A stretch of DNA of 64,000 nucleotides from Candidatus Omnitrophota bacterium (GTDB lineage Bacteria; Omnitrophota; Gorgyraeia; Zapsychrales; Zapsychraceae). The notes under the pieces are model-generated. The model did no database searches and was not told the DNA's origin. It saw only the letters and a program-made list of their open reading frames with translations. The position numbers and the translations under genes were made by a program. Positions 21,484 through 41,759 of this stretch are shown in pieces (within the stretch, counting starts at the first letter, position 1; every line of letters starts with the position of its first letter). The stretch lies in contig JADFXQ010000001.1 of assembly GCA_015233495.1 (NCBI GenBank), forward strand, positions 68,045 to 132,044, written 5' to 3'.

Positions 21484-22476
21484 CTACTCTTTATTCGGCT
21501 GATAAAAAATAATCTGCGTGCCGAAATCTTCAAATTTAAACGGCACCCATAACAATTTGCGCAATTTTTTCCGCACCGCTTCCTGCTGTTGTAGCGGCGC
21601 GAAAAATAAAATAAACCCGCCGCCGCCCGCGCCCAATAATTTTCCGCCTGTCGCGCCGGCTTTGCGGGCCGCCTCATAAATTGCGTCGATTTCCGGCGTT
21701 GAGACTTTATCCGACAACTTCCGCTTCAATTGCCAACTTTCATTCAATAATTTTCCAAACGACGCGAGACTTCCCCGGCCGTTCACCACCTTCAAGGCCT
21801 CGAACACCAGACTGTGCATGGTTTTCAATTCCTCCCGCCGCGAGGGGATATTCTGAATCTGATGCGCCGCGATCTGCGAGGCCATGCGCGAAAACCCGGT
21901 AAAAAACAGCATCAAGTGATTTTGTAAATCCTCCAGCCGTTCCTGGGTAATCGTTACCCGCCGCGCCTGTAAATGATGCTTGCCGCCGAATTCAATCAAA
22001 TTGAAACCGCCCAAAGCCGCCAGCGTCTGGTCCTGACAGCCGACATTTTCTTTGCACATATTCTGCTCAATATGGATCGCTTCCCGCGCCAGCCTTTCCT
22101 TGGTCGGCATCACGCCTTTCAAAGCGTAGACGGCGTGCAGCAGGCCCACTGTAAAGGACGAACTCGAACCCAAGCCGGTGCGCGCCGGCAAATCTCCGTC
22201 GTGATGAATCTCCACGCCTTTGCGCATCTGTAAATAGCGCAACACCTCGCGCACCGCCGGATGATCGATTTCGTCTAACTTTTTCACATGCTCCATCTGG
22301 GAATAAATGATCCGCGATTTATGCTCAAAAAACGGCGGCAAATACCGGCAAGTGATATAACAATATTTATCGATCGTGGTGGCTAAAACAGCTCCCGGAT
22401 GTTCCCCGTACCATTGAGGATAATCCGTGCCCCCGCCAAAAAACGAAATGCGAAAGGGAGTTCTGGATATAATCAT
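21484..22476 (-). CDS. GHMP kinase, D-glycero-alpha-D-manno-heptose-7-phosphate kinase-like (HddA family)
   Basis: MIISRTPFRISFFGGGTDYPQWY N-terminus characteristic of HddA-type GHMP kinases. GLGSSSS motif. Confidence 0.65.
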   Translation of the reverse strand: MIISRTPFRISFFGGGTDYPQWYGEHPGAVLATTIDKYCYITCRYLPPFFEHKSRIIYSQMEHVKKLDEIDHPAVREVLRYLQMRKGVEIHHDGDLPARTGLGSSSSFTVGLLHAVYALKGVMPTKERLAREAIHIEQNMCKENVGCQDQTLAALGGFNLIEFGGKHHLQARRVTITQERLEDLQNHLMLFFTGFSRMASQIAAHQIQNIPSRREELKTMHSLVFEALKVVNGRGSLASFGKLLNESWQLKRKLSDKVSTPEIDAIYEAARKAGATGGKLLGAGGGGFILFFAPLQQQEAVRKKLRKLLWVPFKFEDFGTQIIFYQPNKE

Positions 22477-22485
22477 GCTGACGCC

Positions 22486-24039
22486 TTAATAATTGTCCCG
22501 GACCAATTTTTTCTCACAGACTTTCTGCATATGCGCGACTTCCGCTTCCCCAAACCGCTCCCGCAGCCGGTTCAAATACCGGACGTCCTGACAATAATCG
22601 TCAAAAGCCGCGTCCCGGAATTTTAAAATTGCCCCGCTGGTCAAATGTTGGGTAGGCAAAGGAAGACAATCGCGGCTAAGCTGGGCATAACTGCTCCACG
22701 ACTGCGGGAGCGGCCATCCTTCGCGGATCGCGTCTAAATATAATTGTGAACCGGGATACGCCATCGCGCAATAAAAATTTGGATAGGCGCAATTCAATTC
22801 TTTCGCTAAAGCCAGCGTGGCGCGCATGGATTCCAAATCATCGTCCGGCAGACCAAAAATAAAATTCGCGACCACCTCAATCCCGGCCGCATGGGTTTTG
22901 CGGACAATATCCTTAATGTCTTCTTCATTAAACCGGCCCTTGGAAACGGCATCCCGGACTTTTTTCGTGCCTGCCTCGATTCCATAAGCGATCCAATTAA
23001 TGCCTGCCTGTTTCATTTTGGGCAGCATATATTCTTTCACCGTGTCAATCCGGCCATACACCCAAAAATTCAAATCATATCCGCGTTGAATCACTCCGTC
23101 GCAAATCGCCTCAACATGGTCCCATTTCATGGCAAACAGCTCGTCCAAAATCTTGATATTTTTGACCCGGTAATTTTTAACCAAAAAATCGATTTCCTCC
23201 AGGACTTTTTCCGTCGGGCGGTAACGGATACCCGGTCCGCCGAATATCGCGCTGATACAGCAAAACCCGCAGTGAAACGGGCATCCTAAACTGGTGTACA
23301 CAACCGCGTAAGGCGCACGTTCGTTCAAATGACCAAAACAATGCCAATTATGCGCCCGGTATCGGCTCATATCTAACAAGTCCCAGGCCGGCATGGGCAA
23401 AGAACCCAAATCTTGAATATTATCCGGGCGAGGATTACTGACGATTTTTCCCCCGCGCAAATACCACAGACCTTTAATCGAAAAATCCCGCGCCAGCCCG
23501 CCGCGGATAGAATCAAACAAATCCGGCGCCGCGCCGCTCGGCAAATCCGAGATTTGGCCGCCTTCTCCGAGAGACCCCTGCCGGGCCTTACCGTTTTGTA
23601 AAGCCGCCAGCAATTCAGCGTGCGTGGTAAACCCCTCGCCAACCATGACGAAATCCACAGCCTCTTCGCGCAAGGTTTGCTCCGGCAAGGCGGACGGATG
23701 TAATCCGGCGATCGCCCGGGGAGTTGCCGGCGAAAGCGTCTTTAAAGCGGCCAAAACTTTTCCCGCGCCCGGCATATTGCAAGTGGAGGCGTTAGGGTTT
23801 GTCCCGGAAACAATCACTGAAACGAATAATGGTTTCGCGGCAAGCGCCCGAGCCGCGGTTTCCTGCTCGTCCAGATTTTCCGCTTCCGCGTCAATCACCC
23901 GAACGGAAAATCCCTTGTCCCGCAAATAAGCGGCAGTCAAAATCAGCCACAAAGGCGGCTCAATCGCGGACACATCCTCGCTCAGTCCCTGATACAAACG
24001 TTTTTGATTATTAGCTTTAATGAGTACAATATCTGGCAT
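22486..24039 (-). CDS. B12-binding domain radical SAM protein (class B)
   Basis: N-terminal cobalamin-binding-like region, YTSLGCPFHCGFCC cluster motif, 517 aa. Confidence 0.75.
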   Translation of the reverse strand: MPDIVLIKANNQKRLYQGLSEDVSAIEPPLWLILTAAYLRDKGFSVRVIDAEAENLDEQETAARALAAKPLFVSVIVSGTNPNASTCNMPGAGKVLAALKTLSPATPRAIAGLHPSALPEQTLREEAVDFVMVGEGFTTHAELLAALQNGKARQGSLGEGGQISDLPSGAAPDLFDSIRGGLARDFSIKGLWYLRGGKIVSNPRPDNIQDLGSLPMPAWDLLDMSRYRAHNWHCFGHLNERAPYAVVYTSLGCPFHCGFCCISAIFGGPGIRYRPTEKVLEEIDFLVKNYRVKNIKILDELFAMKWDHVEAICDGVIQRGYDLNFWVYGRIDTVKEYMLPKMKQAGINWIAYGIEAGTKKVRDAVSKGRFNEEDIKDIVRKTHAAGIEVVANFIFGLPDDDLESMRATLALAKELNCAYPNFYCAMAYPGSQLYLDAIREGWPLPQSWSSYAQLSRDCLPLPTQHLTSGAILKFRDAAFDDYCQDVRYLNRLRERFGEAEVAHMQKVCEKKLVRDNY

Positions 24040-24062
24040 ATTTTATCATGTCCACACGATAC

Positions 24063-24175
24063 CAGGACACAAGTCATGTCGTTTACAATTTTTATAAATT
24101 TTGTTGTGTTTGCCTGATTTTATCTTAAAAAATAAGATTAAAATTTACAATACTTGTGTCCTGTGTCCTTGTGTC
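24063..24175. repeat. GACACAAG/CTTGTGTC element, copy 2 (reverse orientation)
   Basis: Core aaattttgttgtgtttgcctgatttt is the reverse complement of the copy-1 core. The ends are ccaGGACACAAGtc ... taCTTGTGTCCTGTGTCCTTGTGTC. Confidence 0.8.
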
Positions 24176-24178
24176 TTT

Positions 24179-25111
24179 TTAGACATTGGCATACTGATTT
24201 CGTTTCAAGATCCGGTAAGCCTTCACTAATTCTTTAATCCCGCCGGTCAGCGATACCGCCGGTTTAAAACCGGTCTTTTCGATTTTTTCATTGCTGACAA
24301 TATAATCGCGCTTGTCCGGATCTTCGCCGATTTTCGATTCGACGTAATAAAATTCCGGCACCTGTTTCTTGATTTCAGCGCACAATTCCTCTTTATTCAA
24401 ATTCGCGTCGCTCAAACCCACATTATAGGCTTGATTTTTCATGGTGTCAAAATGCGCCAACCCATGCACAAAGGCATTGGCCACGTCGCGGACATGAATG
24501 AAATTCCGTTTAAAATGCGCCTCAAACAACACCACAAACCGATCATTCACCGCCCGATAAACAAAATCATTCACCAATAAATCCAAACGCATCCGCGGGC
24601 TGACCCCAAACGCGGTCGCCAAACGCAAGGTGATCGCGTTGCCGGAATCGAGGATCGCTGTTTCCGCGTCCACCTTCAGCTTGCCGTAAAGCGAAACCGG
24701 CCTAAGTGGCGTTTCCTCCGTGCAATACTTGCCTTTTTCGCCGATCCCGTAACCGCTGTTCGTCGTAGGAAAAATAATCTTCTGCTGGGGACGGCGCAAA
24801 GTCAACATCAGCTTAATCGCGTCCAGCAAAACTGCCTGGGCAGTTTGCGGATCCTTCGCGCACAAAGGCGCCCCGGTCAAACAAGCCAACGGGAAAATCG
24901 CGTCCGCGTCGGCCAGCAATTTCTCAACGCAATTTTTGTCCCGCACATCCCCGCGAACAATTTCAAATTTCGGATCATGGCAGCAATCCAACAGCGGTGT
25001 CTGGCCATACATAAAATTGTCCAAAACCGTTACCTGATGCCCCTGTGACAACAACATCGGCGTCATCACCGACCCGATGTACCCGGCCCCGCCGGTAATC
25101 AATATTTTCAT
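24179..25111 (-). CDS. NAD-dependent epimerase/dehydratase (extended SDR)
   Basis: MKILITGGAGYIGS ... YGKLK catalytic YxxxK. Confidence 0.7.
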   Translation of the reverse strand: MKILITGGAGYIGSVMTPMLLSQGHQVTVLDNFMYGQTPLLDCCHDPKFEIVRGDVRDKNCVEKLLADADAIFPLACLTGAPLCAKDPQTAQAVLLDAIKLMLTLRRPQQKIIFPTTNSGYGIGEKGKYCTEETPLRPVSLYGKLKVDAETAILDSGNAITLRLATAFGVSPRMRLDLLVNDFVYRAVNDRFVVLFEAHFKRNFIHVRDVANAFVHGLAHFDTMKNQAYNVGLSDANLNKEELCAEIKKQVPEFYYVESKIGEDPDKRDYIVSNEKIEKTGFKPAVSLTGGIKELVKAYRILKRNQYANV

Positions 25112-25214
25112 ACAACTTTCTCCTTGCTTTTTATTCCCGACGACAAAAATATGCTAAAAATGAAAATAGCCATAAACTATTTATTGCCAATGGGATATTG
25201 AGATCTTACACCAT

Positions 25215-26255
25215 TTATTCAACCATCTTTCTTGCCGCAGATACGATGTCGGCTACGCCTGGGTAAAAGGCCTCTTCTAACACATAGCTCGACGGGGTTG
25301 GGATGTCCGGGAAAGTGACGCGGACCGGCGCGGATTTTAATGACGCGAAGCCTTTTTCTGTGACGGTGGCGATCACTTCCGCGGCAAAACCGCAGGTTTT
25401 CCAACTCAAATCCGCGACTAACAGGCGGCCGGTTTTTTTCACGGAATCCAAAACTAGCTGTTCATCAAATGGCTTGAGCGATCTGGGGTCAATGATCTCC
25501 GCGCTGATACCCAGCTTTGCTAATTCTTCCGCCGCGCGCAGGGCCTCGACGGCCATATGCGACACCGCGACAATGGTGATATCCTTGCCTTCCCGACGGA
25601 TAACGCCCTGGCCGATGGGAACCGAATACATTTCCTCCGGGACATCACCGGTGTGTTTATACAGCCAGCGCTGCTCAAAATACAGCACCGGATTCGGATC
25701 CGCGATCGCGGCTAAAAGCAAACCTTTGGCGTCAAACGCGGTAGTGGGCATCAAGACTTTGAGCCCCGGCGTGTGGACAAACAAAGATTGCAGGGCTTGA
25801 GAATGTTGCGCTGCCGACCCCCAGCCGCGGCCGATACACGCCCGGATCACGATCGGAACCTTGACGCGCCCCGCAAACATATAATGCCATTTTCCGGCGT
25901 GATTGGCGATTTGGTCCATAGCGACGAGCAAAAAATCCGGACGGTTGTGCACCGAAACCGGACGCAAGCCGCACATCGCTGACCCTAAGGCCATGCCGAT
26001 CACCGCGTTTTCCGAAAGCGGGGTGTCAAACACCCGGCGGCCGCCGTATTTTTTATGCAGATCTTTCGTCGATCCGAACATCCCGCCCGGGTCATCGACG
26101 CCCTGACCCATGACATAAACATTCGGGTCAGCGGCCAAGGCCTGATCAAGCGCCTCGCGGATGGCTTCGCCATAACTCAATTTGCGCACAGCTTGACCCG
26201 CGTCATGATCAAAATGCGGCTCCTGCCGCTCTACATATAATTTTGTCCAGGGCAT
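25215..26255 (-). CDS. TPP-dependent dehydrogenase E1 component, beta subunit (transketolase-like)
   Basis: Full-length E1-beta similarity. The start was moved to MPWTKLY because the longer ORF-track N-terminus overlaps repeat copy 3. Confidence 0.8.
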   Translation of the reverse strand: MPWTKLYVERQEPHFDHDAGQAVRKLSYGEAIREALDQALAADPNVYVMGQGVDDPGGMFGSTKDLHKKYGGRRVFDTPLSENAVIGMALGSAMCGLRPVSVHNRPDFLLVAMDQIANHAGKWHYMFAGRVKVPIVIRACIGRGWGSAAQHSQALQSLFVHTPGLKVLMPTTAFDAKGLLLAAIADPNPVLYFEQRWLYKHTGDVPEEMYSVPIGQGVIRREGKDITIVAVSHMAVEALRAAEELAKLGISAEIIDPRSLKPFDEQLVLDSVKKTGRLLVADLSWKTCGFAAEVIATVTEKGFASLKSAPVRVTFPDIPTPSSYVLEEAFYPGVADIVSAARKMVE

Positions 26256-26271
26256 AGATTCCTTTATTAAA

Positions 26272-26389
26272 TACACAAGACACAAGTATTCTGCTCGAAT
26301 GTCCTGCTTATTTAAGGCAAACTCAGGCAAACACAACAAAATATTTTCAAATGCCTAAACAACTTGACTTGTGTCCTGTGTCTTGTCTC
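26272..26389. repeat. GACACAAG/CTTGTGTC element, copy 3 (forward)
   Basis: Left end ataCACAAGACACAAGta. Core ctcaggcaaacacaacaaaatattttcaaatgcctaaa. Right end CTTGTGTCCTGTGTCTTGTCTC. Confidence 0.8.
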
Positions 26390-27356
26390 ACTCAAATAAA
26401 AATCTTCCCAATTCCTCTTTTTTCGGCAAGGGGCTTTGCTGGGCAAAAAGGAATGCCGCCTCAATTTCCCCGTCCACTGCTTCGTCGATGGCGGCAATGT
26501 CCGCCTCCGGCGCCAAATTCTGCGCTAAAATTTTGTTCTTGAATATTTCGACCGGACACCGCCTAAAAGCATCATCCAAATCTTCTGACCGGCGGTAATT
26601 TTCCCGGCCCGGATCGCCGATTCCATTATGACCGCGCCAGCGTTGGCAAAGGCATTCTAAAAAAACCGGGCCTTGACCCGAACGCGCCGCGGCAATCGCT
26701 GTTCCCGCCTGTTCATAAACTGATAGCAAATCCGAACCATCCGCCTGATACGCGGGAATATCAAAGGCGCCCGCCCGCGCCGTCAACCGCTCATTCACCT
26801 GCCGGGCAGACAACCGCGAACAGACCGCGTAATAATTATTTTCACAAACAAATACCACCGGCAGTTTGCGCAAAGCCGCCAGATTCAAACTCTCGAAAAA
26901 CACTCCTTCTTCCATCGCGGCGTCGCCGAAAAAAGTCACCGCAACCCGGTTATCGCCGCGATACCACGAGGCGAACGCCGCGCCGACCGCGTGCGGAATG
27001 CTTCCCGCCACAATGGCCGAAGATCCCATCAGACCCACTTGCGGATCAACCAAATGCATGGAACCGCCGCGGCCCGCCGCGCACCCGGTTTCCTTGCAAT
27101 ACAATTCCGCGATCATTGCCGGCAGATCGCCGCCCTTGGCCAAATAATGACCATGACTGCGATGATTGCTGAAAACATAATCTTCGCGTTTTAAATGGCT
27201 GCAAACCCCGACGGAAACCGCCTCCTGTCCCAAGGACAAATGCACGGGCGTCTTCATCTCATCACGCGGATAAAGTTCTTCGATTTTCTGTTCCACTTTC
27301 CGAATACGGATAAGCGAACGATACAGCCGGATAATTTGTTCTGCGGTCAAGTTCAT
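26388..27356 (-). CDS. TPP-dependent dehydrogenase E1 component, alpha subunit
   Basis: TPP-binding GDAAMEEGVFFESLNLAA...VCENNYYA motif. Confidence 0.8.
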   Translation of the reverse strand: MNLTAEQIIRLYRSLIRIRKVEQKIEELYPRDEMKTPVHLSLGQEAVSVGVCSHLKREDYVFSNHRSHGHYLAKGGDLPAMIAELYCKETGCAAGRGGSMHLVDPQVGLMGSSAIVAGSIPHAVGAAFASWYRGDNRVAVTFFGDAAMEEGVFFESLNLAALRKLPVVFVCENNYYAVCSRLSARQVNERLTARAGAFDIPAYQADGSDLLSVYEQAGTAIAAARSGQGPVFLECLCQRWRGHNGIGDPGRENYRRSEDLDDAFRRCPVEIFKNKILAQNLAPEADIAAIDEAVDGEIEAAFLFAQQSPLPKKEELGRFLFE

Positions 27357-27413
27357 GCGCTGCGATATTCCTTTTGAAAAACCATGCCAAATTCTGTCCT
27401 GCCGCTGCTTGTT

Positions 27414-28355
27414 TTACAGCCTATCCTGAAACCAGGCTAAGGTTTCCTTAATACCTTGCTTTAGCCCGACTTTTGGCTGCCACTGCAAATGCTTTTTCGC
27501 CAGCGTAATATCCGGCCGGCGCTGTTTCGGGTCATCGACGGGAAGCGGCGAATACGCGATGCGGCTTTTTGTCCCGGACAATTTAATCACCAGTTGGGCG
27601 AATTCCAAAATCGTAAATTCCCCCGGATTGCCGATGTTCATCGGCCCCGCATAATCGGACAATAACAAACGATAAATCCCTTCGACCAAATCAGAATAAT
27701 AACAAAAAGAACGCGTTTGTTGACCATTGCCATAAACCGTCAGCGGCTTTCCATGCAAGGCCTGGTCAATAAAATTCGGCACCACCCGCCCATCTTTAAT
27801 CCGCATCCGCGGCCCATAGGTATTGAAAATCCGAATAATCCGCACATCCACCTTGTGATACCGGTTATAAGCTAAAGTGATAGCTTCCGCAAACCGTTTC
27901 GCCTCGTCGTAAACACTGCGCGGTCCGTTGGGATTCACATGCCCCCAATAAGTTTCTTTTTGCGGATGGACCTGCGGGTCGCCGTACACTTCCGAAGTGG
28001 ACGCGAGAAAAAACCGCGCCTTCTTCGCCTTCGCCAAACCCAATCCATTGTGCGTGCCTAATGACCCCACTTTCAAAGTCTCAATCGGAAACATCAGATA
28101 ATCCACCGGACTGGCCGGAGAAGCGAAATGCAGCACATAATCCACTTTCCCGGGAATCGTAATCGGCTTGGAGATATCATGCTTCAGAAAATCAAACCGC
28201 TTCTCGTCCTTCAAATGCGCGATATTCTTCATGTTCCCGGTGATCAAATTATCCACCGCGATCACCCGATACCCCTCCAAAATAAACCGATCGCACAAAT
28301 GACTCCCCAAAAACCCCGCCCCGCCGGTAATGACGACTGTCTTACATTTTTTCAT
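27414..28355 (-). CDS. uxs: UDP-glucuronate decarboxylase (UDP-xylose synthase)
   Basis: Strong end-to-end resemblance to UXS ([56 protein letters not shown]). Confidence 0.85.
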
Positions 28356-28451
28356 TACGATCCTTTCCGTAAATTAAAAAGACGCCTGATCATATCCAAA
28401 TTTCTATATAGCAAATACAGCAAACTATCAAAAACCGCGCGCCCAAGGCGA

Positions 28452-29753
28452 TTACAACCTCACCACATTCTTATACATTTTATCCCCATAAACGTTTTTC
28501 ACATCAAACACCAACCGCGAATGCTTCCGCACCGCTGCGTAATCAACCTGACTATGGTCCGTAGCAATCACCACGCAATCATATTTCCTCAAATTCGCCG
28601 GCGTAACCTCCACCCGCAGCAAATCAATCCCATTGATCTTCAAATAAGGAATCAACGGGTCAGAATAATCCACCCGGGCCCCGGCCTTTTGCAAAAGCTC
28701 AATCAAAACCAAAGACGGCGACCGCCGTAAATCTTTGACATCTTTTTTATAAGCAACGCCTAAAACCAGCAAGGACGCCTCTTGCAAAAATGTGTCCGGC
28801 TTTAAAATCTCCGTGATCCGCTCTACGGCATAGGCCGGCATATCCGCGTTCGTATCCGCCGATAATTTAATATATTTCGAATGAAACCCGTATTTCTTCG
28901 CTTTCCAGTAAAGATACAGCGGATCATCGGGAATACAATGACCGCCCACGCCCAAGCCCGGATAAAACGGCATAAAACCAAACGGCTTCGTCTTCGCCGC
29001 CGCGATCACCTCCCAAACATCCACGCCCATTTTATGACACATCCGGGCCACTTCATTGATCCACCCAATGTTGATAATCCGAAACGAATTTTCCAAAAGC
29101 TTGGTCATCTCCGCCGCTTTTGCGGAAGACACTAAGTGAACAGCCACAATAATTTTTTCATAAAGCAGTTTCGTTAACTCCCCGCATTCCGCTGTCACTC
29201 CGCCGACCAATTTGGGGATCCGCGTCACATCGTAATTTTTATTCCCCGGATCGATCCGTTCCGGCGAGAAAGCGAGATAAAAATCAGTTCCCGCTTTCCG
29301 GCCGCCGCGCTCCAATTCCGGCCGGAACAATTCGTCGGTTGTTCCCGGATAGGTCGTGCTTTCGAGGACCACCAATGTCCCCGGCCGGATATATCGGCGT
29401 ATAGTTTTCACCGCGTCGACAATATAAGAAATATCCGGCGTGTATTTTCGTTTGAGCGGAGTGGGGACACAGACAATGATAACATCAACCTGTGCCAACA
29501 CCGCAAAATCCATCCCCGGAGAAAACCGGGCTTGATCGATCACCTCGGCAACTTCTTTGGCCGGCATATCGAGTATATAACTCCGCCTTTGTTGTAATTG
29601 GATAACTCGGTCTTCGTCTTTATCCAAACCCCAAACTGAAAAACCGGCTTTTGCGAAATTGACCGCCAAAGGCAATCCCACATATCCCAGCCCGATCACC
29701 GCGAGCTTCGCGGTTTTATTCTGTATTTGTTTTTTTAAATTTTCCCGTTTCAT
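28452..29753 (-). CDS. UDP-N-acetyl-D-hexosamine dehydrogenase family (WecC/WbpA-like nucleotide-sugar dehydrogenase)
   Basis: LAVIGLGYVGLPLA Rossmann motif. The GGHCIPDDP catalytic Cys motif is the variant typical of UDP-ManNAc/GlcNAc dehydrogenases. Start taken as MKRENL. Confidence 0.7.
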   Translation of the reverse strand: MKRENLKKQIQNKTAKLAVIGLGYVGLPLAVNFAKAGFSVWGLDKDEDRVIQLQQRRSYILDMPAKEVAEVIDQARFSPGMDFAVLAQVDVIIVCVPTPLKRKYTPDISYIVDAVKTIRRYIRPGTLVVLESTTYPGTTDELFRPELERGGRKAGTDFYLAFSPERIDPGNKNYDVTRIPKLVGGVTAECGELTKLLYEKIIVAVHLVSSAKAAEMTKLLENSFRIINIGWINEVARMCHKMGVDVWEVIAAAKTKPFGFMPFYPGLGVGGHCIPDDPLYLYWKAKKYGFHSKYIKLSADTNADMPAYAVERITEILKPDTFLQEASLLVLGVAYKKDVKDLRRSPSLVLIELLQKAGARVDYSDPLIPYLKINGIDLLRVEVTPANLRKYDCVVIATDHSQVDYAAVRKHSRLVFDVKNVYGDKMYKNVVRL

Positions 29754-29772
29754 AATTTTCCTGATTCCGCTC

Positions 29773-31083
29773 TTATCCCTTAACCTTCCCCCGGCCGACC
29801 CCGTAATATTCAAAACCCAGCGCGGCCAAATCCGCTGCCGCGTAAAGATTGCGCCCGTCAAAAATAACCGGTTGTTTCATCAAGGATTTTATTTTGCGAA
29901 AATCCAGATCCTGAAATTCCGGCCATTCGGTCAAAACGATGCAGCAATCACATCCTTTCGCCAGATCATACACATCCCGGCTATAAACCACATTTTTAAA
30001 AATCAACCGGGCCTGCGCCATCGCCTGAGGATCAAAGGCCTTAATCCGCGCCCCTTCGTGCTGCAGGGTTTTAATCACGCTGATCGACGGGGCGCTGCGC
30101 ATATCATCGGTATTGGGTTTAAACGCCAACCCCAAAACGCCAATGGTCTTGCCCTTGACATTCCATAATTTATCTTCGACCAATTTCAAAAATGCCGCTC
30201 CTTGGTCTTCGTTTACCTGCCGCACCTGCTTCAGCAGTTGAAAATCATATCCGTTTTTTTCGGCAAGCCGAATAAAAGCGTCAACGTCTTTTGGAAAACA
30301 ACTACCGCCATATCCGATCCCGGCGTCCAAAAACGAACGACCGATCCGTTTATCAAATCCCATCCCTTCCGCGACTTTCAGAACATCCGCGCCTACCCGG
30401 TCGCAGATCTGCGCCACCGCGTTGATGAATGAAATTTTCGCCGCTAAAAACGAGTTAGAAGCATGTTTGATCATCTCCGCGGAATTGATATTCGTCACGA
30501 CCATGCGGGCGGCCAGTGGTTTATAAATATCCCGCAAAATCCGTTCGGCGCGTTTGGATTCCACCCCGATCACCACCCGGTCCGGATTCATAAAATCATG
30601 AACCGCCGATCCTTCCCGTAAAAATTCCGGATTGGACGCCACGTCAAATTCCAGGGTTTTATTTTTCGGAAGATTGAGCCGGATCGTCCGGGCGACGCGC
30701 TGTCCGGTTTCCGCGGGCACCGTCGATTTCTCGACGATCAAACGATAGCCGTCTAAACACCGCGCGATTTCCCGCGCCACGTTTTCCACATAAGTCAAAT
30801 CCGCGTCGCCGTTTTTCTTTGAGGGAGTGCCGACCGCGATAAAAATCACTTCAGTTTGTTTCACCGCCGCTTTGATCGAAACGGAAAACGACAGCCGTTT
30901 GCTTTTCATATTTTTCTTTAACAGCGGCTCTAATCCCGGCTCATAAATCGGAACCATTCCTTGGTTCAATTGCTTTATTTTTTCCCGGTCCACGTCGACA
31001 CAAATTACCGTATGCCCGGTTTCCGCCAGACAAACCCCGGTCACCAACCCGACATAACCCGAACCAATGATAGCAATGTTCAT
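29773..31083 (-). CDS. ugd: UDP-glucose 6-dehydrogenase
   Basis: MNIAIIGSGYVG, GGSCFPKD catalytic Cys motif, 437 aa after the start was reset. Confidence 0.85.
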   Translation of the reverse strand: MNIAIIGSGYVGLVTGVCLAETGHTVICVDVDREKIKQLNQGMVPIYEPGLEPLLKKNMKSKRLSFSVSIKAAVKQTEVIFIAVGTPSKKNGDADLTYVENVAREIARCLDGYRLIVEKSTVPAETGQRVARTIRLNLPKNKTLEFDVASNPEFLREGSAVHDFMNPDRVVIGVESKRAERILRDIYKPLAARMVVTNINSAEMIKHASNSFLAAKISFINAVAQICDRVGADVLKVAEGMGFDKRIGRSFLDAGIGYGGSCFPKDVDAFIRLAEKNGYDFQLLKQVRQVNEDQGAAFLKLVEDKLWNVKGKTIGVLGLAFKPNTDDMRSAPSISVIKTLQHEGARIKAFDPQAMAQARLIFKNVVYSRDVYDLAKGCDCCIVLTEWPEFQDLDFRKIKSLMKQPVIFDGRNLYAAADLAALGFEYYGVGRGKVKG

Positions 31084-31123: not shown

Positions 31124-33235
31124 TTAAATCTCTTGTCCAGCCTTGCGCTTGGCAAACCCGGTGCCGCCGCCGACATTGATAGACGGAAACGCCTTAAGCC
31201 GGAAAATCAACATGATTTCGCTGCCCTCGCCCTTTTTGTTAGTCAGCGAAGTTTCCACGGTCCAGCTGTGCAAATCCCGCGTGACCGTGTAGCCCTGTTC
31301 CTTAAGTTTCGAAGCTTTCAAATCAAACCGGTCAAACACATGGAGCGTCCATTTTTTATTCACATCCCAATGCAGGTCGGTAGTCACCTGATCATCCGCG
31401 TCCCGGGCCCAGCGTTTCCCCACATCGAGTCCCCAGCCTTTGCCGTTAATGTACGCATCGAAATTCACCGCACTCCAATGTCTCTGCCGCGGATCATATC
31501 CGGAATCAAAATACAAAGTAAGCCAATCCACCGGACGAAAATCAATGTTCGAAGTAATCGTGTCAAACCCGCCTTTGCGCGGGTCTTCTTTCAAATGAAA
31601 ATCCGTGCCCAGCACCGCGCGCAGCAGTTCGACCGTCTTGTCGTTCCGTTTCGTCTGCAATTTATTTTCTAAAGAAAAATTGATGTTATGAATATTCGTG
31701 ATCGTGTCCACGCTGTCAAAGGCATCCAGCGTGGTGGCTGGCACAGTTGGCTTGTTCTGAAAGTCATAGGAAACGGTTGGCGTGATGATATGGCGCAGCC
31801 GGTTGATTTCCAGTCCATAGGCGTTCATCTGCGCTTCATAAATACGATAAAATTTGGTGCTGACACTTGCCCCGGTTTTAAACACGGCGCGCGTGATATT
31901 GGAGCGGGAAATGTCGTGGGTGCGGCTGTAGTATGTTTCTTCCTGCCCGACATACGGCTTAAATTCGAAAATATGGACCTTCATCGGATACGATAAAATG
32001 TTATCCGTATCCAAACGCATGGTCTTCAAACGACTGACGCTCGGCGCGGCCTGTTCATTGGCCAAATTGGAATAGGTCGTCGCGTTTCTCCAATAAAGCC
32101 CCGAATCCCCCAGCTCAAAATTGGCCATGTCATAACGGACTTCCGGCAGACGCTCGACCTGACTGGTAAACGTATTGACCCGTTTATCCGCCCGCAGGCT
32201 CAAAATCCCTTTCGACAATGTCCGCGTCAAAAGAAAAAACGTCTGCGGATTGCTGTCGCGGTCATACTCCCTTTGGAAAAAATCTTTCAAAAAACGGCTG
32301 TCGCTTAATTTATAAAACTGCATCACCGCGTTGGTCTGCTTATCCATCTGCCATTGATGCCGCCATTCGACCTTATACCGGGTATGTTGAATTTTATAAA
32401 CATCCGTCTTATCCGTGGTGGTTAAGGATTTGTCAGTAAGATAATAGGTGCGCAATAAACCGTTTCCCAAGGAAGGGGTTTTATAAGCGGTATCCAAACC
32501 ATAGCCCATGCCGATCAATTGCCGGTAATCGGCGTGCACAACCGCTTTCAAATGCTCGTCCCCGAAATAGCGCCACTGGCCCAGTAAAAACGCTCCCCAG
32601 CGCTTTTTATAACCGGGAATAACTTCCCACTGGGGTTTGGGATTTTGTAAATTTTGCGAAATCTTCGGAATATACATCAAAGGCACGTTGCCGACTTTCA
32701 TCAGAACATTGCGGGCGATAACCTTATCCTGCGGATAAATTTCGATCTGATCGGCAAACATCCGATATTCCGGATCATCCCAGTCGGAAGTGGTCATATA
32801 ACCTTTAGACATCACCAACTTATCCCCCTGCAGTTTGGTAATCAAATCCGTATATCCGTAAAGCGGGGGCATAAAAATTTTCGCTTGGCGGAATTCGCCT
32901 TTTTGCGTCGCAAAGTTATACTCCAGTTCATTGCCGGCAACCTCGCCTTTTTTGGTGCGCAAACGAACATGGCCTTTCGCGTGCGCATTTTTCGTTTTTT
33001 GCTCAAAAGTGACCATGTCGCAGGTCAGTGTCGAATCCTGATAAATAATTTTCACATTGCCCTTGGCGGTGATCAGACTTCCATCCACCGAATATTCCAC
33101 AGTGTCCCCATTCAGCTCTACGGAAGACGCGGGCGAAGAGACCGCGGCAAAACCTCTCCCCGTCCCGGCTAAAACAACCGACAAAAGCATCAATACCGCT
33201 TTTAATGGAAAATTCCAGGTTTCGCGCTTTGTCAT
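31124..33235 (-). CDS. lptD: LPS-assembly protein LptD (OstA family)
   Basis: Signal peptide. N-terminal OstA/LptA-like repeats (GNVKIIY...GHVRL...) and a ~550-aa C-terminal beta-barrel. Confidence 0.7.
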   Translation of the reverse strand: MTKRETWNFPLKAVLMLLSVVLAGTGRGFAAVSSPASSVELNGDTVEYSVDGSLITAKGNVKIIYQDSTLTCDMVTFEQKTKNAHAKGHVRLRTKKGEVAGNELEYNFATQKGEFRQAKIFMPPLYGYTDLITKLQGDKLVMSKGYMTTSDWDDPEYRMFADQIEIYPQDKVIARNVLMKVGNVPLMYIPKISQNLQNPKPQWEVIPGYKKRWGAFLLGQWRYFGDEHLKAVVHADYRQLIGMGYGLDTAYKTPSLGNGLLRTYYLTDKSLTTTDKTDVYKIQHTRYKVEWRHQWQMDKQTNAVMQFYKLSDSRFLKDFFQREYDRDSNPQTFFLLTRTLSKGILSLRADKRVNTFTSQVERLPEVRYDMANFELGDSGLYWRNATTYSNLANEQAAPSVSRLKTMRLDTDNILSYPMKVHIFEFKPYVGQEETYYSRTHDISRSNITRAVFKTGASVSTKFYRIYEAQMNAYGLEINRLRHIITPTVSYDFQNKPTVPATTLDAFDSVDTITNIHNINFSLENKLQTKRNDKTVELLRAVLGTDFHLKEDPRKGGFDTITSNIDFRPVDWLTLYFDSGYDPRQRHWSAVNFDAYINGKGWGLDVGKRWARDADDQVTTDLHWDVNKKWTLHVFDRFDLKASKLKEQGYTVTRDLHSWTVETSLTNKKGEGSEIMLIFRLKAFPSINVGGGTGFAKRKAGQEI

Positions 33236-34185
33236 TTGAATTTTGTCATTTGAATTTTGTCATTTGTCATTAATAAACCCGCTCCGATCACGCCCGCGTC
33301 ATCGCCTAATTTCGCCGCCGCCACTTTAACTAACTGCGCGGGAACTCCCATTGCCCGTTCGCGGATCGTGGCGGCAATCGCTGTTTTCATAAAACGCAAA
33401 CTTTTCGCGACCCCGCCGCCTATCACAATAAGACGCGGATTTAATAAATTAACCGCCCCGACTAAACCATACCCAACCACTGTGCCGACCCCATACCAAA
33501 AATCCAAAGCCCGGCTATCGCCCCGCGCTGCTAAGGCGTAAACATCTTCTAATGTGATATCTTGGCGTTTAAAAAAATCCCGCGCTCCAGCCAAGAGAGT
33601 GGCATTGCCGACATAACGCTCAAAACAAGCCCGCCCGCCGCAATTGCACGCCGGCCCGTTTTCATTGAGCGGCACATGACCCAGCTCGCCCGCGCAAAAC
33701 CCTTCGCCGCGATACAATTTGCCCTCTAAAATCAAACCCGCGCCCACCCCCGTACCCAGCGTCATACAAATCATGTTCCGGTAGCCCCGTCCGGCTCCGA
33801 ATTTCGCCTCCGCCAGAGCCATACCATTGACATCATTATCTACCCGGACCGGTAACCCTAATTTTGCTTCTGCCAATTTCTGCAAAGGCACATTTTTCCA
33901 CCCAAAAATATTCGTCAAAGTCAAAACCACGCCCCGGTCAAAATCCACCAAACCCGGCACGCCAAAACCCACGCCTTGCACCTGATCTTGACGCAGTCCC
34001 CGCGCCGCTAAAAGCCCGGCCACACTTTCGACCACCGCTTGAATCAGACATTCTTTATCCGCGGCCACCTCGGCGGTCTTGATCCGGCCTCGGGCCACAA
34101 TCTCCCCGGCATCCGAGACGATACCCAGTTTAATATTCGTGCCGCCAATATCAACGCCAATCACATAATTTTTCTTATACATCAT
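33232..34185 (-). CDS. ROK family sugar kinase (glucokinase-like)
   Basis: VIGVDIGGTNIKLGIV, and an EAGHxP ROK motif including a CxCGxxGC zinc motif. Confidence 0.75.
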   Translation of the reverse strand: MMYKKNYVIGVDIGGTNIKLGIVSDAGEIVARGRIKTAEVAADKECLIQAVVESVAGLLAARGLRQDQVQGVGFGVPGLVDFDRGVVLTLTNIFGWKNVPLQKLAEAKLGLPVRVDNDVNGMALAEAKFGAGRGYRNMICMTLGTGVGAGLILEGKLYRGEGFCAGELGHVPLNENGPACNCGGRACFERYVGNATLLAGARDFFKRQDITLEDVYALAARGDSRALDFWYGVGTVVGYGLVGAVNLLNPRLIVIGGGVAKSLRFMKTAIAATIRERAMGVPAQLVKVAAAKLGDDAGVIGAGLLMTNDKIQMTKFK

Positions 34186-34344: not shown

Positions 34345-34704
34345 TCATGTCTCCAGGCTGAACGACGGCAGGGCATCGGAACTTTTATCTAGGAGTTTTT
34401 TAAGACGGCTCATAGATTCGTCTTCCATTTTCGTGAAATAAAAAGCAAAACCTTCGCCGGCCACGATCCGGGAAATGCGCGCCATACCTTGAATAAGGTT
34501 GTGTTCATTGCCGGGAGCGGACGGAAAAGCGAAACCGATCTCGTCGCTTAACTTCAAAAACACGTTTTCCCGTATGCGGATAAACGCGCTCTTTAAAGAG
34601 ATGTCCTTCAGCCGTCCGTTTAAAGTTAATTGCTCTCCGATACGAATCTGGGCCGGCAAGTCCGAATTGTATCGCGATTCCCTGCGTAAATTTTGCGTTT
34701 CCAT
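34345..34704 (-). CDS. PilZ domain c-di-GMP receptor
   Basis: RRESRY (RxxxR) followed by LKDISLKSAFI (D/NxSxxG-like) PilZ motifs. 119 aa. Confidence 0.65.
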   Translation of the reverse strand: METQNLRRESRYNSDLPAQIRIGEQLTLNGRLKDISLKSAFIRIRENVFLKLSDEIGFAFPSAPGNEHNLIQGMARISRIVAGEGFAFYFTKMEDESMSRLKKLLDKSSDALPSFSLET

Positions 34705-34745
34705 ATTGAACGCTCCTTTAATAGTTTACCTATGCAAACTCTCTT

Positions 34746-35795
34746 TTATAAATGCTGCTTTCCCGCAGCTTTATCTGTGTAAACCCCGACTGCCGCCACT
34801 CGGTTTCTCCCCTGCTGTTTCGCGCGATAGAGCGCCCAATCCGCTTTTTCAAGAATTTCCTCCGCGGTTTTACCGTCTTGCGGGAACGTGGCAATGCCGA
34901 TGCTCAGGGTGACTTGATACGTTCCGTCATAAGCCCTGACTACGGTCTTTTCCATAGCTAAACGGATACGTTCCGCGGCATACTTCGCGCCGTCCGATCC
35001 GGTATCCGGCAATATCACGCAAAATTCTTCCCCGCCAAAGCGGCCATCAATATCAATCTCCCGGATATTGGTCTTAATCACTTGCCCGACCTCCCGCAAT
35101 ACCTGATCGCCGGTAAAGTGGCCGTATTGATCATTAAAAGTTTTAAAATGATCCACGTCTGCCATAAGAAAAGAAACCTCGGTTTTATGGTTTTTCGAGC
35201 GGCTTACCTCTTCCGCGAAACGCTCCAAAGCGTAACGCCGGGTGTGCACCGCAGTCAAACTGTCGGTGATCGCGATTCTTTCGATTTCTTCATACAACTT
35301 GACCCGGCGCAAAGCCAAAGCAAACTGATGTCCCAAGATCATCAACTTATCTTCTTCCTGGGCAGGCATCCCGGTCACCACCAAATATCCCAGGCGCCGG
35401 CGTTTAACATGCAGCGAGAATACAAAAACCTGGTCTGGCGTCCAGTAATGGTTTCCTTTATGCGGGAGGTTGATGGCCTCGGGTAAAACATCGAGAAGCA
35501 GACACTCGGCGAACCGGACGTGTTCCCTTAATTTCTTTTTGAACAACTCCAAAGCCTCCGCTTCCTTTTGGGACTGGGTAATATCTTTAGTCATTTCATA
35601 GAGAGTAAAAATCTGAATCGCCCGGTCTTCCAAAGCCATTTTTTGATCGAAATACGCATTTTTCTCCGCTACGCATTTTTGATAATCGGCTTGCTGGTCT
35701 GCCAGCTTCTTTTCTAACCGGACAAACACCCGCCGGACAAGATAGCGGGAGGCCAGCATCACCACTGCGACATAAACAATTAAAAAGCCAATCAT
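34746..35795 (-). CDS. membrane-anchored GAF-like/GGDEF diguanylate cyclase
   Basis: N-terminal TM and a coiled region. GGEEF active site with the RYGGEEF context and the RxxD I-site region. Confidence 0.85.
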   Translation of the reverse strand: MIGFLIVYVAVVMLASRYLVRRVFVRLEKKLADQQADYQKCVAEKNAYFDQKMALEDRAIQIFTLYEMTKDITQSQKEAEALELFKKKLREHVRFAECLLLDVLPEAINLPHKGNHYWTPDQVFVFSLHVKRRRLGYLVVTGMPAQEEDKLMILGHQFALALRRVKLYEEIERIAITDSLTAVHTRRYALERFAEEVSRSKNHKTEVSFLMADVDHFKTFNDQYGHFTGDQVLREVGQVIKTNIREIDIDGRFGGEEFCVILPDTGSDGAKYAAERIRLAMEKTVVRAYDGTYQVTLSIGIATFPQDGKTAEEILEKADWALYRAKQQGRNRVAAVGVYTDKAAGKQHL

Positions 35796-35828
35796 CGATT
35801 CCCCGTCTCTGCCCTATCGCCTCGGGCC

Positions 35829-37187
35829 TTATACATAGCACACACGGTTACGGCCTTGCTCTTTAGCCCGATATAATGACTGGTCTGCCTGGGCGATCAA
35901 TTCATCTTTATCCCGGCCGTCCTGCGGAAAAGCGGCGACCCCGATAGAAATCGTGACGCGCGTCCGCTCCCGGCGCAAAAAAATCGTCTGCCCGGCAATT
36001 TTCTCCCTCAGCCCTTCGGCCAATTCCGCAGCTTTCGTCTTCGAACAGTCCGGCAATAAAACACAGAATTCTTCTCCGCCATAACGCGCCACCAAACTGC
36101 CCGGAATATGACTGAAATAATCCGTCATGGCCATCGCCGCCGTCTTCAGCACAATATCGCCAGCTACATGGCCAAACCGGTCGTTATAATCTTTAAATTT
36201 GTCCAAATCCATCATCAAAAAAGCCAAGGATTCCTGCCTGCGAACGTGTCGGCTGATCTCCTGCGCTATGCGCCCCATCAAATAGCGGCGTTGATACAAA
36301 TTGGTCAAGCCGTCAAAAATCGCCAATTGCTCCGCGCGTTCATACAACTGCGCATTTTCCACGGCGACCGCGGCTAAATCGGCGATCGCCGCGAGAAAAC
36401 GCAAATCATCGGTCGTAAAAAATTTTTCCCGGGGATGATCGACACGCAAAATTCCCAAAGTCCGTTGACCCACGACAAGCGGAACGCTGATCAAAGAACC
36501 GACTACCCGAGAGTCCTCCCCGGCGATTTTTTCTACGTCAAACCGATAATCGCCCCGGCTGTCTTCCACCAAAAGCGGCTGCAAGGTTTTGACTACCCAA
36601 CGGTCAAACGCGTCACCCTGCTTCGATTTGATACTAACGCGGTTCAGCCCTTTTTGCGACGACGAAATTCCAAACTCTCCGGTTTTCGCGTGAAATAAAT
36701 AAAGGATCACGGTGGCCTCGGAGCCTTTACCGGCGGCAATCAAACGATGCGCCTCATTAGTCAGCATCTTCGAGGTGTCAAGTGTGTAGAGGCACTGGCC
36801 TAACAATTCCGTGAGGTCTTTTAACTTGGCTAAAAGCGCAATTTTGTCTTCAAGCGCGGCTATGGCTTTCGTTTCCGCGGCAATTTCCGCGGTCACCAAA
36901 TTACGCGACTCAAAAATATCCTGCGATTTAAAATTATGTTCCGCTTGATAAGCGGACAGCCTTTTACCCCAATAAAAAAAATAAAGGATCAAACAAAATA
37001 AAGCGGCAGCCAAATTGATAAAAAAACGGGGGTCCTGTTTAATCGCAAAATGAAAAAAAAACGCCAAGGGAAACCCAAATAAGGCGAGGAAATAGAGGAC
37101 TTGCTCAGATGATCGTTTTTTCAGTAACGGGATCAAAGAAATGCACCTTGCCCATGTTAAACACAACCTCCATGTCCCGATTGACAT
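35829..37187 (-). CDS. membrane-anchored GAF-GGDEF diguanylate cyclase (start uncertain)
   Basis: GAF region (LISVPLVVGQRTLGILRV) and GGEEF motif. A tandem paralog of the neighbouring DGC. The ORF-track start overlaps the ABC ATPase 3' end by ~80 nt, so the true start is probably a downstream alternative codon near 37127. Confidence 0.75.
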   Translation of the reverse strand: MSIGTWRLCLTWARCISLIPLLKKRSSEQVLYFLALFGFPLAFFFHFAIKQDPRFFINLAAALFCLILYFFYWGKRLSAYQAEHNFKSQDIFESRNLVTAEIAAETKAIAALEDKIALLAKLKDLTELLGQCLYTLDTSKMLTNEAHRLIAAGKGSEATVILYLFHAKTGEFGISSSQKGLNRVSIKSKQGDAFDRWVVKTLQPLLVEDSRGDYRFDVEKIAGEDSRVVGSLISVPLVVGQRTLGILRVDHPREKFFTTDDLRFLAAIADLAAVAVENAQLYERAEQLAIFDGLTNLYQRRYLMGRIAQEISRHVRRQESLAFLMMDLDKFKDYNDRFGHVAGDIVLKTAAMAMTDYFSHIPGSLVARYGGEEFCVLLPDCSKTKAAELAEGLREKIAGQTIFLRRERTRVTISIGVAAFPQDGRDKDELIAQADQSLYRAKEQGRNRVCYV

Positions 37188-40467: not shown

Positions 40468-40854
40468 TTAAACAACTTTCCCTGAATTTTTCTTTAAAAA
40501 TAAAAAGATCGCCGCCCCCAAAGCGCTGCCGATCGTGTCTGCCAGCCAGTCAAAAACATCAGCGCAGCGACCGGGCACAAAATATTGGTGAATTTCATCA
40601 CTCGCCGCGAAAAGCATAGCTATCAACAGCGCGCCTAAAAAAACAAAACGCGGCAAAAACAACCGCGTTGTCCCAATTAAGGCCCGGGTGAGCAACCATC
40701 CCCACAAACAATATTCAATAATATGCTCGATTTTATCGAAATTGTCAACCGGAACTATTGTCGGCACCCGGCTCAGGGAGGATACAAACCAAATGATACC
40801 AGAATACAAAATAACCGGAAACCAATATTTAAGGATTTTCTCGTTCATACACAA
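40468..40854 (-). CDS. VanZ family membrane protein
   Basis: 128 aa, four TM segments, and the VanZ-like DKxxH motif (DKIEHII). Confidence 0.55.
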   Translation of the reverse strand: MCMNEKILKYWFPVILYSGIIWFVSSLSRVPTIVPVDNFDKIEHIIEYCLWGWLLTRALIGTTRLFLPRFVFLGALLIAMLFAASDEIHQYFVPGRCADVFDWLADTIGSALGAAIFLFLKKNSGKVV

Positions 40855-40959
40855 AGAATATATTATAACAAAATAACCTTATTTGAACTTGTTGTGAAGC
40901 CATTGAATCCTGACCAAAGAACATCTAATCTGTCGAGGAAAGCGTAAATGGCTCTGATT

Positions 40960-41627: not shown

Positions 41628-41643
41628 ATTACGTCCCTCCATT

Positions 41644-41684: not shown

Positions 41685-41759
41685 TGTTTTTGGGAAGATC
41701 GGTGGGCGCGTTCGAGACCCCAATGTTTACACATTATCAGGTCATCCGTTAAGACTTAC

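Follow-up and report, generated by a model that had tools for sequence, protein, structure and literature searches.

A conserved gene cassette from Omnitrophota and other phyla most likely directs synthesis of a carbon-branched, GDP-activated heptose-type sugar

A 64 kb stretch of the genome of a Candidatus Omnitrophota bacterium (contig JADFXQ010000001.1, positions 68,045 to 132,044; here called the window and numbered from its first nucleotide) encodes a thiamine diphosphate-dependent enzyme of the E1 alpha/beta type, a short-chain dehydrogenase/reductase (SDR), a radical S-adenosylmethionine (SAM) enzyme with a B12-binding domain and a sugar kinase of the GHMP family. These genes belong to one cassette that is conserved across many bacterial and some archaeal phyla. 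Judged from the sequences, the cassette most likely builds a carbon-branched sugar of the heptose type that is activated by guanosine diphosphate (GDP). In the model that fits best, to which we give an even chance of being correct, a GDP-heptose-type sugar would be oxidised, 3-deoxygenated, provided with a two-carbon branch by the thiamine enzyme and tailored by the radical SAM enzyme.

All genes listed in a preliminary description of positions 22486-31083 were recovered on the minus strand, at the same coordinates, by domain matches to Pfam and NCBIfam. Start codons were refined by ribosome-binding sites and homologue lengths, and position 31083 is the ATG of a UDP-glucose 6-dehydrogenase gene. 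That gene set was correct as far as it went but missed a nucleotidyltransferase, a GDP-type SDR and a ColD-like 3-dehydratase at 945-3918. In addition, an HddA-type kinase had been placed just upstream of the region; on the transcribed strand the GHMP kinase gene instead lies downstream of the radical SAM gene, separated from it by 9 bp. The genes assigned to the cassette, together with an adjoining ManC gene, are:

26388-27356, minus strand: E1 alpha, thiamine diphosphate enzyme subunit, proposed sugar C-C carboligase (PF00676, 1.4e-65)
25215-26255, minus strand: E1 beta, thiamine diphosphate enzyme subunit (Transket_pyr, PF02779, and Transketolase_C, PF02780)
24179-25111, minus strand: extended SDR, Cj1427-type nucleoside diphosphate (NDP)-sugar C4-dehydrogenase, probably for GDP-heptose (PF01370, 7e-30)
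22486-24039, minus strand: radical SAM enzyme with B12-binding domain (PF02310, 3e-15, 56 bits; PF04055, 7e-18, 66 bits)
21484-22476, minus strand: HddA-like GHMP sugar kinase, the putative anomeric kinase of the cassette (best matches: the heptose-7-phosphate kinases HddA/WcbL)
3175-3918, minus strand: HddC/ManC-like sugar-1-phosphate nucleotidyl(guanylyl)transferase (man1P_GTase 152 bits, HddC 141 bits)
2120-3115, minus strand: GDP-sugar SDR of the Rmd/Gmd type, 4-reductase or 4,6-dehydratase (closest PDB entries 2PK3 and 7US5)
945-2123, minus strand: ColD/E1-type pyridoxal phosphate (PLP)-dependent sugar 3-dehydratase of the DegT family (His for the Schiff-base Lys; ColD 188 bits, E1 dehydrase 182 bits)
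2-889, minus strand: ManC, mannose-1-phosphate guanylyltransferase, cut by the window edge (50% identity to L070 16339-17421, which itself scores 349 bits on the GMP_PMI model)

Conservation and composition of the cassette

Homologues of the radical SAM protein, at 47-65% identity, were traced to contigs and to 80 species genomes, and the neighbourhoods of 84 loci were compared by tblastn mapping and by clustering of all neighbouring open reading frames (ORFs). Relatives of the protein occur in at least 599 species genomes. Eighty of the loci come from Omnitrophota, Elusimicrobiota, Planctomycetota, Nitrospirota, Desulfobacterota, Chloroflexota and Verrucomicrobiota, and also include a lineage of the candidate phyla radiation (CPR), Methanoperedenaceae, a nanoarchaeon and a cyanobacterium. 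The following genes recur:

Radical SAM enzyme: 78 of 84 loci, 46-65% identity to the window protein
GHMP kinase: 56 of 84 loci, 55-73% identity to the window protein
SDR of 24179-25111: 54 of 84 loci, 57-76% identity to the window protein, across phyla
'DegT' protein: 49 of 84 loci and a second type in 15, about 52% identity between the window protein and the cluster representative
Fcl-like SDR: 45 of 84 loci, window without a homologue
Nucleotidyltransferase: 44 of 84 loci, 30-52% identity to the window protein
Split transketolase: 28-29 of 84 loci
E1 alpha/beta pair: 26-27 of 84 loci, 32-62% (E1 alpha) and 26-77% (E1 beta) identity

Some loci also encode heptosyltransferase II, GmhA (8 of 84) and GmhB (7 of 84); neither GmhA nor GmhB is encoded in the window. 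In related loci, the cassette is followed by a polyprenyl-phosphate glycosyltransferase of family 2 (GT2). Full-text literature searches on the gene combination found no paper describing the cassette.

In five related loci (L004, L005, L006, L061 and L070), the kinase gene is directly followed by genes whose best matches in the window are those at 945-3918 and ManC. The nucleotidyltransferase is the best match of the cassette nucleotidyltransferase in L005, L006 and other loci, and the DegT-type protein is 74% identical to the product of the cassette gene of L005. In the window, this block is separated from the kinase gene by about 17.5 kb of housekeeping genes, and the cassette is therefore split in this genome.

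A two-subunit thiamine enzyme is present in 41 of the 43 loci that have 7 kb or more of sequence on each side; it is either the E1 pair or a split transketolase, never both. The thiamine genes are often adjacent to the radical SAM gene. On a neighbour-joining (NJ) tree of the radical SAM proteins, the type of partner switches between E1 and transketolase at least 14 times. As the two displace each other repeatedly, we argue that both perform equivalent steps.

Partner enzymes of GDP-sugar types

The SDR at 24179-25111 matches PDB entries 6VO6/6VO8 over its full length (410 bits, 57% identity over 308 residues), with YGKLK aligned to YGIDK of 6VO6 at the YxxxK motif. We took 6VO6 to be Cj1427 and then checked this assumption by sequence and locus context. 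The 6VO6 sequence is that of Campylobacter jejuni (96% to a cluster of 439 C. jejuni sequences), and the gene lies between an fcl-like SDR gene and hddA-gmhA-hddC, next to kpsC, which is the position of Cj1427. The window SDR is probably a Cj1427-type NDP-sugar C4-dehydrogenase for GDP-heptose. Cj1427 functions as a GDP-heptose C4-dehydrogenase and, in combination with a C3-dehydratase, yields GDP-3-deoxy-4-keto-heptose in vitro (PMC10680097).

Genes for HddA-like and HddC-like proteins accompany the SDR gene in most loci. Compared to the C. jejuni heptose locus, identity is 36% between the nucleotidyltransferase and HddC, 36% between the Fcl-like SDR and Cj1428, 49% for GmhA and 29% between the kinase and HddA, so that the HddA-like and HddC-like proteins reach only 29-36%. 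The window kinase scores 140 bits on the HddA model (cutoff 600) and 116-131 bits against WcbL/HddA entries of the PDB.

ColD and E1 sugar 3-dehydratases are recognised by a His in place of the Schiff-base Lys of PLP enzymes. This replacement was found in 47 of 55 'DegT' proteins of one type and in 15 of 15 of the other. The window protein shares it and reads SLYAAHIVTS-IEGG, with its His aligned to the catalytic Lys of GDP-perosamine synthase (3BN1). By this signature, the cassette 'DegT' protein is a ColD-type sugar 3-dehydratase and not an aminotransferase. The SDR at 2120-3115 scores 155 bits against GDP-6-deoxy-D-lyxo-4-hexulose reductase (2PK3) and 152 bits against the C. jejuni GDP-heptose 4,6-dehydratase (7US5).

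By their homologies, all partner enzymes of the cassette are of GDP-sugar types, and the likely acceptor of the thiamine enzyme is therefore a GDP-4-keto-heptose-type sugar rather than a ketosugar activated by uridine diphosphate (UDP) or thymidine diphosphate (TDP). On this point the preliminary description, which cited additions to NDP-ketosugars in characterised pathways, needs revision.

Proposed pathway

Three classes of thiamine enzymes are known or proposed to branch keto-sugars: YerE-like enzymes, E1 alpha/beta heterodimers and split-gene transketolases (PMC12247030). The pathway proposed here would employ the latter two. In the window it is assigned to a module (module B) comprising 21484-27356 and the displaced block 945-3918, in which the homologies are as given above and the chemistry of each step is our prediction.

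The HddA-like kinase and the HddC-like nucleotidyltransferase would first produce a GDP-heptose-type sugar, which the Cj1427-like SDR would oxidise at C4 to a ketone. Subsequently, the ColD-like His-type PLP enzyme would remove the 3-hydroxyl group, resulting in a GDP-3-deoxy-4-keto sugar. The E1 alpha/beta pair may then act as a thiamine diphosphate carboligase, not as a dehydrogenase: it would decarboxylate pyruvate and add the two-carbon unit to the C4 ketone, leaving a tertiary-alcohol branch by the logic of yersiniose synthesis. In other genomes, a split transketolase would serve as the equivalent, probably by adding a hydroxyacetyl group. The B12-domain radical SAM enzyme would then tailor the product (by C-methylation, deoxygenation or rearrangement), although its place in this order is tentative. 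An SDR of the Rmd/Fcl type would reduce the remaining ketone, and in related loci the polyprenyl-phosphate GT2 would transfer the sugar. The combination of a route to a 3-deoxy-4-keto sugar with two branching classes other than that of YerE would explain the exchange of E1 and transketolase.

The polyprenyl-phosphate GT2 that follows the cassette in related loci suggests that the sugar decorates an envelope glycan. Within the window, no glycosyltransferase domain was found among ORFs of at least 150 amino acids, as had been noted before. In a wider reading, which we put forward tentatively as somewhat less than an even chance, many uncultivated anaerobic bacteria and some archaea and members of the CPR may carry envelopes with new branched or chain-extended heptose-derived sugars, made from GDP-heptose through either an E1 enzyme or a split transketolase, each able to stand in for the other, and after it a radical SAM enzyme with a B12 domain.

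The radical SAM enzyme

The CX3CX2C motif of the radical SAM protein (C253, C257 and C260) is invariant in 26 homologues. Its best NCBIfam match is HpnJ (142 bits, cutoff 578), with BchE, AprD4 and methylases scoring lower and all NCBIfam methyltransferase equivalogs far below their cutoffs. The predicted structural model has a pLDDT of 88. Both by sequence and by fold, the nearest PDB entry is the sugar 1,2-diol dehydratase AprD4, at 19% identity, and TsrM, MgmA, CysS and OxsB score almost as well. Fold matches reached template modelling (TM) scores of 0.65-0.76 at only 15-19% identity to any solved member, and neither the predicted structure nor the fold search told a methylase from a dehydratase.

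The preliminary description had suggested a branched and/or C-methylated sugar; C-methylation could not be secured given the low scores of the methyltransferase equivalogs and the proximity to AprD4. C-methylation, e.g., lengthening of the two-carbon branch, is possible, with deoxygenation or rearrangement equally open. The radical SAM proteins of the cassette represent a large unassigned family with a B12-type domain and a predicted nucleotide-sugar substrate.

The likeness to AprD4 bears on another route, in which the radical SAM enzyme would dehydrate a diol (C6-C7 of the heptose or a ring diol) to a carbonyl to which the E1 enzyme or transketolase adds two carbons, yielding a linear C9 sugar. 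Transketolases and E1-type carboligases usually act on aldehydes as acceptors, and the frequent adjacency of the thiamine genes and the radical SAM gene would fit such a chain extension. However, the Cj1427-like and ColD-like enzymes of the cassette already offer a way to a C4 ketone, such a ketone is the acceptor type of all characterised sugar-branching thiamine enzymes, and the match to AprD4 is both distant and hardly better than those to TsrM, CysS and OxsB. We consider chain extension unlikely and the branching of a C4 ketone the better reading.

Two further observations concern this gene. A perfect sigma-70 consensus (12 of 12 positions; TTGACA, 17 nt, TATAAT) is present on the minus strand at 24450-24422, inside the Cj1427-like SDR gene. 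It precedes the start of the radical SAM gene by about 380 bp and could either drive the radical SAM and kinase genes as an internal promoter or be a chance match. In three marine sediment contigs (L001-L003), a relative of the radical SAM protein (54% identity) occurs in a different polysaccharide locus together with two further B12-radical-SAM proteins (866 and 627 amino acids), a split transketolase, several methyltransferases, a sulfotransferase and a Wzt ABC transporter.

The adjoining UDP-sugar genes

Upstream of the E1 alpha gene, the same strand encodes enzymes of UDP-sugar metabolism and two syntenic neighbours:

27414-28355, minus strand: UDP-glucuronate decarboxylase (UXS; human UXS1 match, 366 bits)
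28452-29753, minus strand: NDP-sugar dehydrogenase of the UDP-N-acetylhexosamine (UDP-HexNAc; WecC/TviB/WbpA-like) type (TIGR03026, 418 bits, above cutoff)
29773-31083, minus strand: UDP-glucose 6-dehydrogenase (UGDH; three UDPG_MGDP_dh domains; TuaD model 586 bits; TIGR03026 488 bits)
31124-34185, minus strand: LptD-like outer-membrane protein and ROK kinase (Pfam LptD and ROK)

UXS aligns over its full length (residues 3-311) to the human UXS1 structures 4GLL/2B69 (366 bits, E 1.5e-108), compared to only about 80 bits for ArnA-type decarboxylases. The formation of UDP-xylose by Ugd and Uxs, as previously proposed, is supported by this orthodox human-UXS1-like enzyme. From their ATG codons at 31083 and 29753, UGDH and the HexNAc-type dehydrogenase are 436 and 433 amino acids long, as in L004. 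The latter scores 217-273 bits on the UDP-ManNAc and TviB equivalogs and remains below the cutoff of each specific equivalog. Together the three enzymes (module A) are predicted to supply UDP-glucuronate, a UDP-HexNAc-uronate and UDP-xylose.

The gene order ROK-LptD-UGDH-dehydrogenase-UXS-E1-SDR-radical SAM-GHMP kinase is kept in L004, L009, L010, L014 and L100. However, UXS occurs in only 14 of the 84 loci, the two dehydrogenases in 6-7 and LptD in 6, and they accompany the cassette only in Omnitrophota-like loci. As UXS is so rare among the loci, it is not a member of the cassette, and the UGDH, dehydrogenase and UXS genes are a separate UDP-sugar supply module beside it that perhaps serves the same glycan. 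The genes previously described as a single nucleotide-sugar locus are real but are better grouped as two modules lying next to each other.

An involvement of UXS in the branching step has a precedent in everninomicin biosynthesis, where the path leads from the UDP-glucuronate decarboxylase EvdS6 through UDP-4-keto-xylose to a hypothesised step by the pyruvate dehydrogenase (PDH)-like EvdU5/EvdS3 (PMC10338323). By analogy, i.e., in a eurekanate-type route, UXS or a relative would release UDP-4-keto-xylose, the E1 enzyme would add an acetyl branch, and the SDR and the radical SAM enzyme would tailor the UDP-pentose. The UXS gene lies 57 bp upstream of that of E1 alpha on the same strand, which speaks for such a route. 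Nevertheless, the scarcity of UXS among the cassette loci stands against it; moreover, an orthodox UXS is expected to release UDP-xylose, and the SDR, dehydratase, reductase and nucleotidyltransferase of the cassette are all GDP-sugar types. UXS feeding the E1 pair was rejected as the main model on co-occurrence and on these partner enzymes, and we regard the route as quite improbable compared to branching of a GDP-activated sugar.

The thiamine diphosphate-dependent pair

E1 alpha retains the thiamine diphosphate motif GDA...CENN and the His of the 'GHN' motif, and E1 beta the QHSQ motif. The conserved thiamine motif and catalytic His residues show what should be a competent enzyme. The start of E1 beta at ATG 26255, preceded by AAGGA, gives a protein of 346 amino acids, as in L004 and L005. 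Neither subunit reaches the curated PDH families: E1 alpha scores 329 bits on PDH_E1_alph_y (cutoff 394) and E1 beta 320.6 bits on the NCBIfam PDH E1 beta model NF006667 (cutoff 321). The exchange of E1 and transketolase is seen in L025 and L078, which have the layout of the window with a transketolase in place of E1 (LptD-UGDH-dehydrogenase-UXS-SDR-[TK_N-TK_C]-radical SAM-GHMP kinase).

A reciprocal scan seeded with E1 alpha was carried out for relatives and their neighbourhoods. The relatives that share 44-61% identity have kinase, SDR, Fcl-like, ColD-like and GT2 genes as neighbours. Where a gene for E2, Lpd or AcoC lies downstream, identity is 40-44% and the sequences are placed outside the sugar clade; in five of these relatives (L148, L150, L152, L153 and L155; 41-43% identity) this gene follows directly. 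An NJ tree was calculated from 80 E1 alpha sequences and rooted on human PDHA1, without references of the AviB, AlmD or KbDH type. The clade spanning all 34 sequences from sugar contexts comprises 60 leaves, none of them linked to E2/E3, and all nine E2/E3-linked sequences are placed outside. Clustering with catabolic E1 enzymes, named in the preliminary description as the result that would speak against a sugar-specific pair, was thus not observed, and the separation from catabolic pyruvate or acetoin dehydrogenases holds on this tree.

In several E1-seeded loci (L090, L097, L099, L105 and L118), sugar-clade E1 pairs occur with remote B12-radical-SAM paralogues of 22-28% identity to that of the window, and the link between the thiamine pair and radical SAM enzymes may thus extend beyond a single orthologous family. 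L090, L105, L121 and L129 had suggested that the cassette can do without the radical SAM enzyme; this reading was dropped, as L090 and L105 possess such remote paralogues (25-28%) and the other two contigs end early. An HMGL-like gene beside E1 alpha in L007, considered as an ErwI-type aldolase that would make a longer donor, turned out to encode an ordinary 2-isopropylmalate synthase and is truncated at the end of the contig.

Two explanations remove the thiamine enzymes from the nucleotide sugar altogether. They might supply precursors only: transketolase makes sedoheptulose 7-phosphate, which is a heptose precursor, and GmhA is encoded in eight loci. An E1 pair cannot make sedoheptulose 7-phosphate, yet it repeatedly replaces the split transketolase in the cassette, and we consider a mere supply function very unlikely. 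Alternatively, the pair could be the E1 of an ordinary pyruvate or acetoin dehydrogenase that lies among sugar genes by chance. The intact catalytic residues, the near-cutoff score of E1 beta and the 193 bits of E1 alpha to human PDHA1 would agree with this, but we consider it highly improbable, as E1 alpha scores below the PDH cutoff, the pair lies outside the E2/E3-linked part of the tree, many phyla keep it in synteny with sugar genes, and no protein with lipoyl, 2-oxoacid_dh or Pyr_redox_2 domains was found among ORFs of at least 150 amino acids in the window. We therefore retain a carboligase acting on the GDP-activated sugar as the preferred role of the pair.

Observations weighing against the proposed pathway

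Several observations weigh against the pathway as proposed. The sugar may not be a heptose, because the kinase is distant from HddA (about 29% identity to the C. jejuni protein) and GmhA and GmhB occur in so few loci (8 and 7). The acceptor carbon and the donor 2-oxoacid of the E1 step cannot be read from the sequence. The E1 residues compared with human PDH and the Thermus E1 (the His of GHx and QHSQ) are all conserved as in true dehydrogenases and therefore do not discriminate between ligase and dehydrogenase. The closest match of the radical SAM enzyme is a dehydratase and not a methyltransferase. The cassette of this genome is in two parts, and the window has no Fcl-like gene. Finally, the loci were sampled by similarity to the query, so that the counts are biased, and the NJ trees of the radical SAM and E1 alpha proteins were calculated without support values.

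Other features of the window

Nearly all genes of the window are on the minus strand, and GC skew is negative in each 2 kb bin. Rfam and tRNA scans of the 64 kb gave no match and no tRNA gene. The region 34345-37187, directly upstream of the string of ROK, LptD and sugar genes, encodes a PilZ protein and two diguanylate cyclases of the GGDEF type, one of which also has a GAF domain. A BRO-N domain protein (53579-54469) scores 398 bits against the PADLOC candidate defence family PDC-S13; upstream of its gene on the minus strand (region 53579-57472) are a 174-amino-acid HATPase_c fragment and a 769-amino-acid protein without a match in Pfam or PADLOC. As read from translations only, a low-GC stretch at 40468-42035 contains small genes, among them a PIN-domain-like protein (40960-41409) with an 88-amino-acid partner upstream (41385-41651), which resembles a VapBC-type toxin-antitoxin pair, and a Cys-rich zinc-ribbon protein of 91 amino acids (41760-42035). 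In a 750-amino-acid protein (11142-13394), only a central histidine-phosphatase domain was recognised, leaving about 600 residues without a domain match.

Significance and comparison with known systems

In a 2025 review, sugar branching by E1-type enzymes and split transketolases is confined to the secondary metabolism of actinomycetes, and the transketolase cases are unproven (PMC12247030). If the proposed pathway is correct, both classes would extend to envelope glycans in Omnitrophota, Elusimicrobiota, Planctomycetota, Nitrospirota, Desulfobacterota, Chloroflexota, CPR and archaea. In the wider reading given above, this would be their first use outside antibiotic pathways of actinomycetes, and the radical SAM proteins would be a new sugar-modifying family. 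The repeated swap of E1 and transketolase would then be a natural experiment on two thiamine folds reaching the same step. As published C. jejuni enzymes can make the substrates, the hypothesis is directly testable.

The closest parallel is the capsular GDP-heptose pathway of C. jejuni (HddA, GmhA, HddC, Cj1427/MlghA, Cj1428 and the HS:5 C3-dehydratase), which matches the cassette enzyme by enzyme; as proposed for the ColD-like enzyme, a PLP 3-dehydratase acts after C4 oxidation there, as documented in vitro (PMC10680097). In contrast to the cassette, the C. jejuni loci possess neither a thiamine enzyme nor a B12-domain radical SAM protein, their products are unbranched heptoses, and the cassette kinase is distant from HddA.

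With respect to the thiamine enzymes, the E1 heterodimers termed 'aKADH2' (aldgamycin, kosinostatin, kibdelomycin, avilamycin, paulomycin, trioxacarcin) add a two-carbon branch from pyruvate (PMC12247030). AlmDI/DII, AviB1/B2, EvdU5/EvdS3 and KbDH-alpha/beta are, like the window pair, encoded by adjacent E1 genes without E2/E3 among keto-sugar genes, a likeness in gene layout. The actinomycete enzymes belong to secondary-metabolite clusters and to TDP- or UDP-deoxysugars, whereas the cassette lies in envelope-glycan-type loci with GDP-heptose-type enzymes. The split-gene transketolases of miharamycin and amipurimycin biosynthesis, proposed to add a hydroxyacetyl group, are of the type that replaces the E1 pair in about half of the cassette loci; the 13 catalogued examples, each of them unproven, all belong to Streptomyces (PMC12247030), while those of the cassette come from Elusimicrobiota, Nitrospirota, Planctomycetota, archaea and others.

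The YerE-like class is of the decarboxylase type and occurs in lipopolysaccharide sugars (PMC12247030). The substrate of YerE and ErwE is an NDP-3,6-dideoxy-4-keto sugar whose formation involves an E1-type dehydratase, and yersiniose and erwiniose synthesis (YerE/ErwE with YerF/ErwF) follows the same logic as proposed here, namely an NDP-3-deoxy-4-keto sugar, addition of an acyl anion from a 2-oxoacid to C4, and reduction (PMC9306805). YerE and ErwE are single-chain, acetolactate-synthase-like enzymes for a cytidine diphosphate (CDP)-3,6-dideoxyhexose, whereas the cassette has an E1 heterodimer or a split transketolase for a GDP-heptose-like sugar. The radical SAM protein shares the N-terminal Rossmann B12-type domain and the radical SAM barrel with AprD4, TsrM, CysS, OxsB and GenK-type C-methylases; AprD4 acts on a sugar diol, and the likeness is one of fold and domains, with a predicted use of cobalamin. 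Compared to these systems, the cassette would be new in using other thiamine enzyme classes for an envelope-type sugar, in its GDP-heptose-type scaffold, in the added radical SAM family and in its wide distribution among uncultivated lineages.

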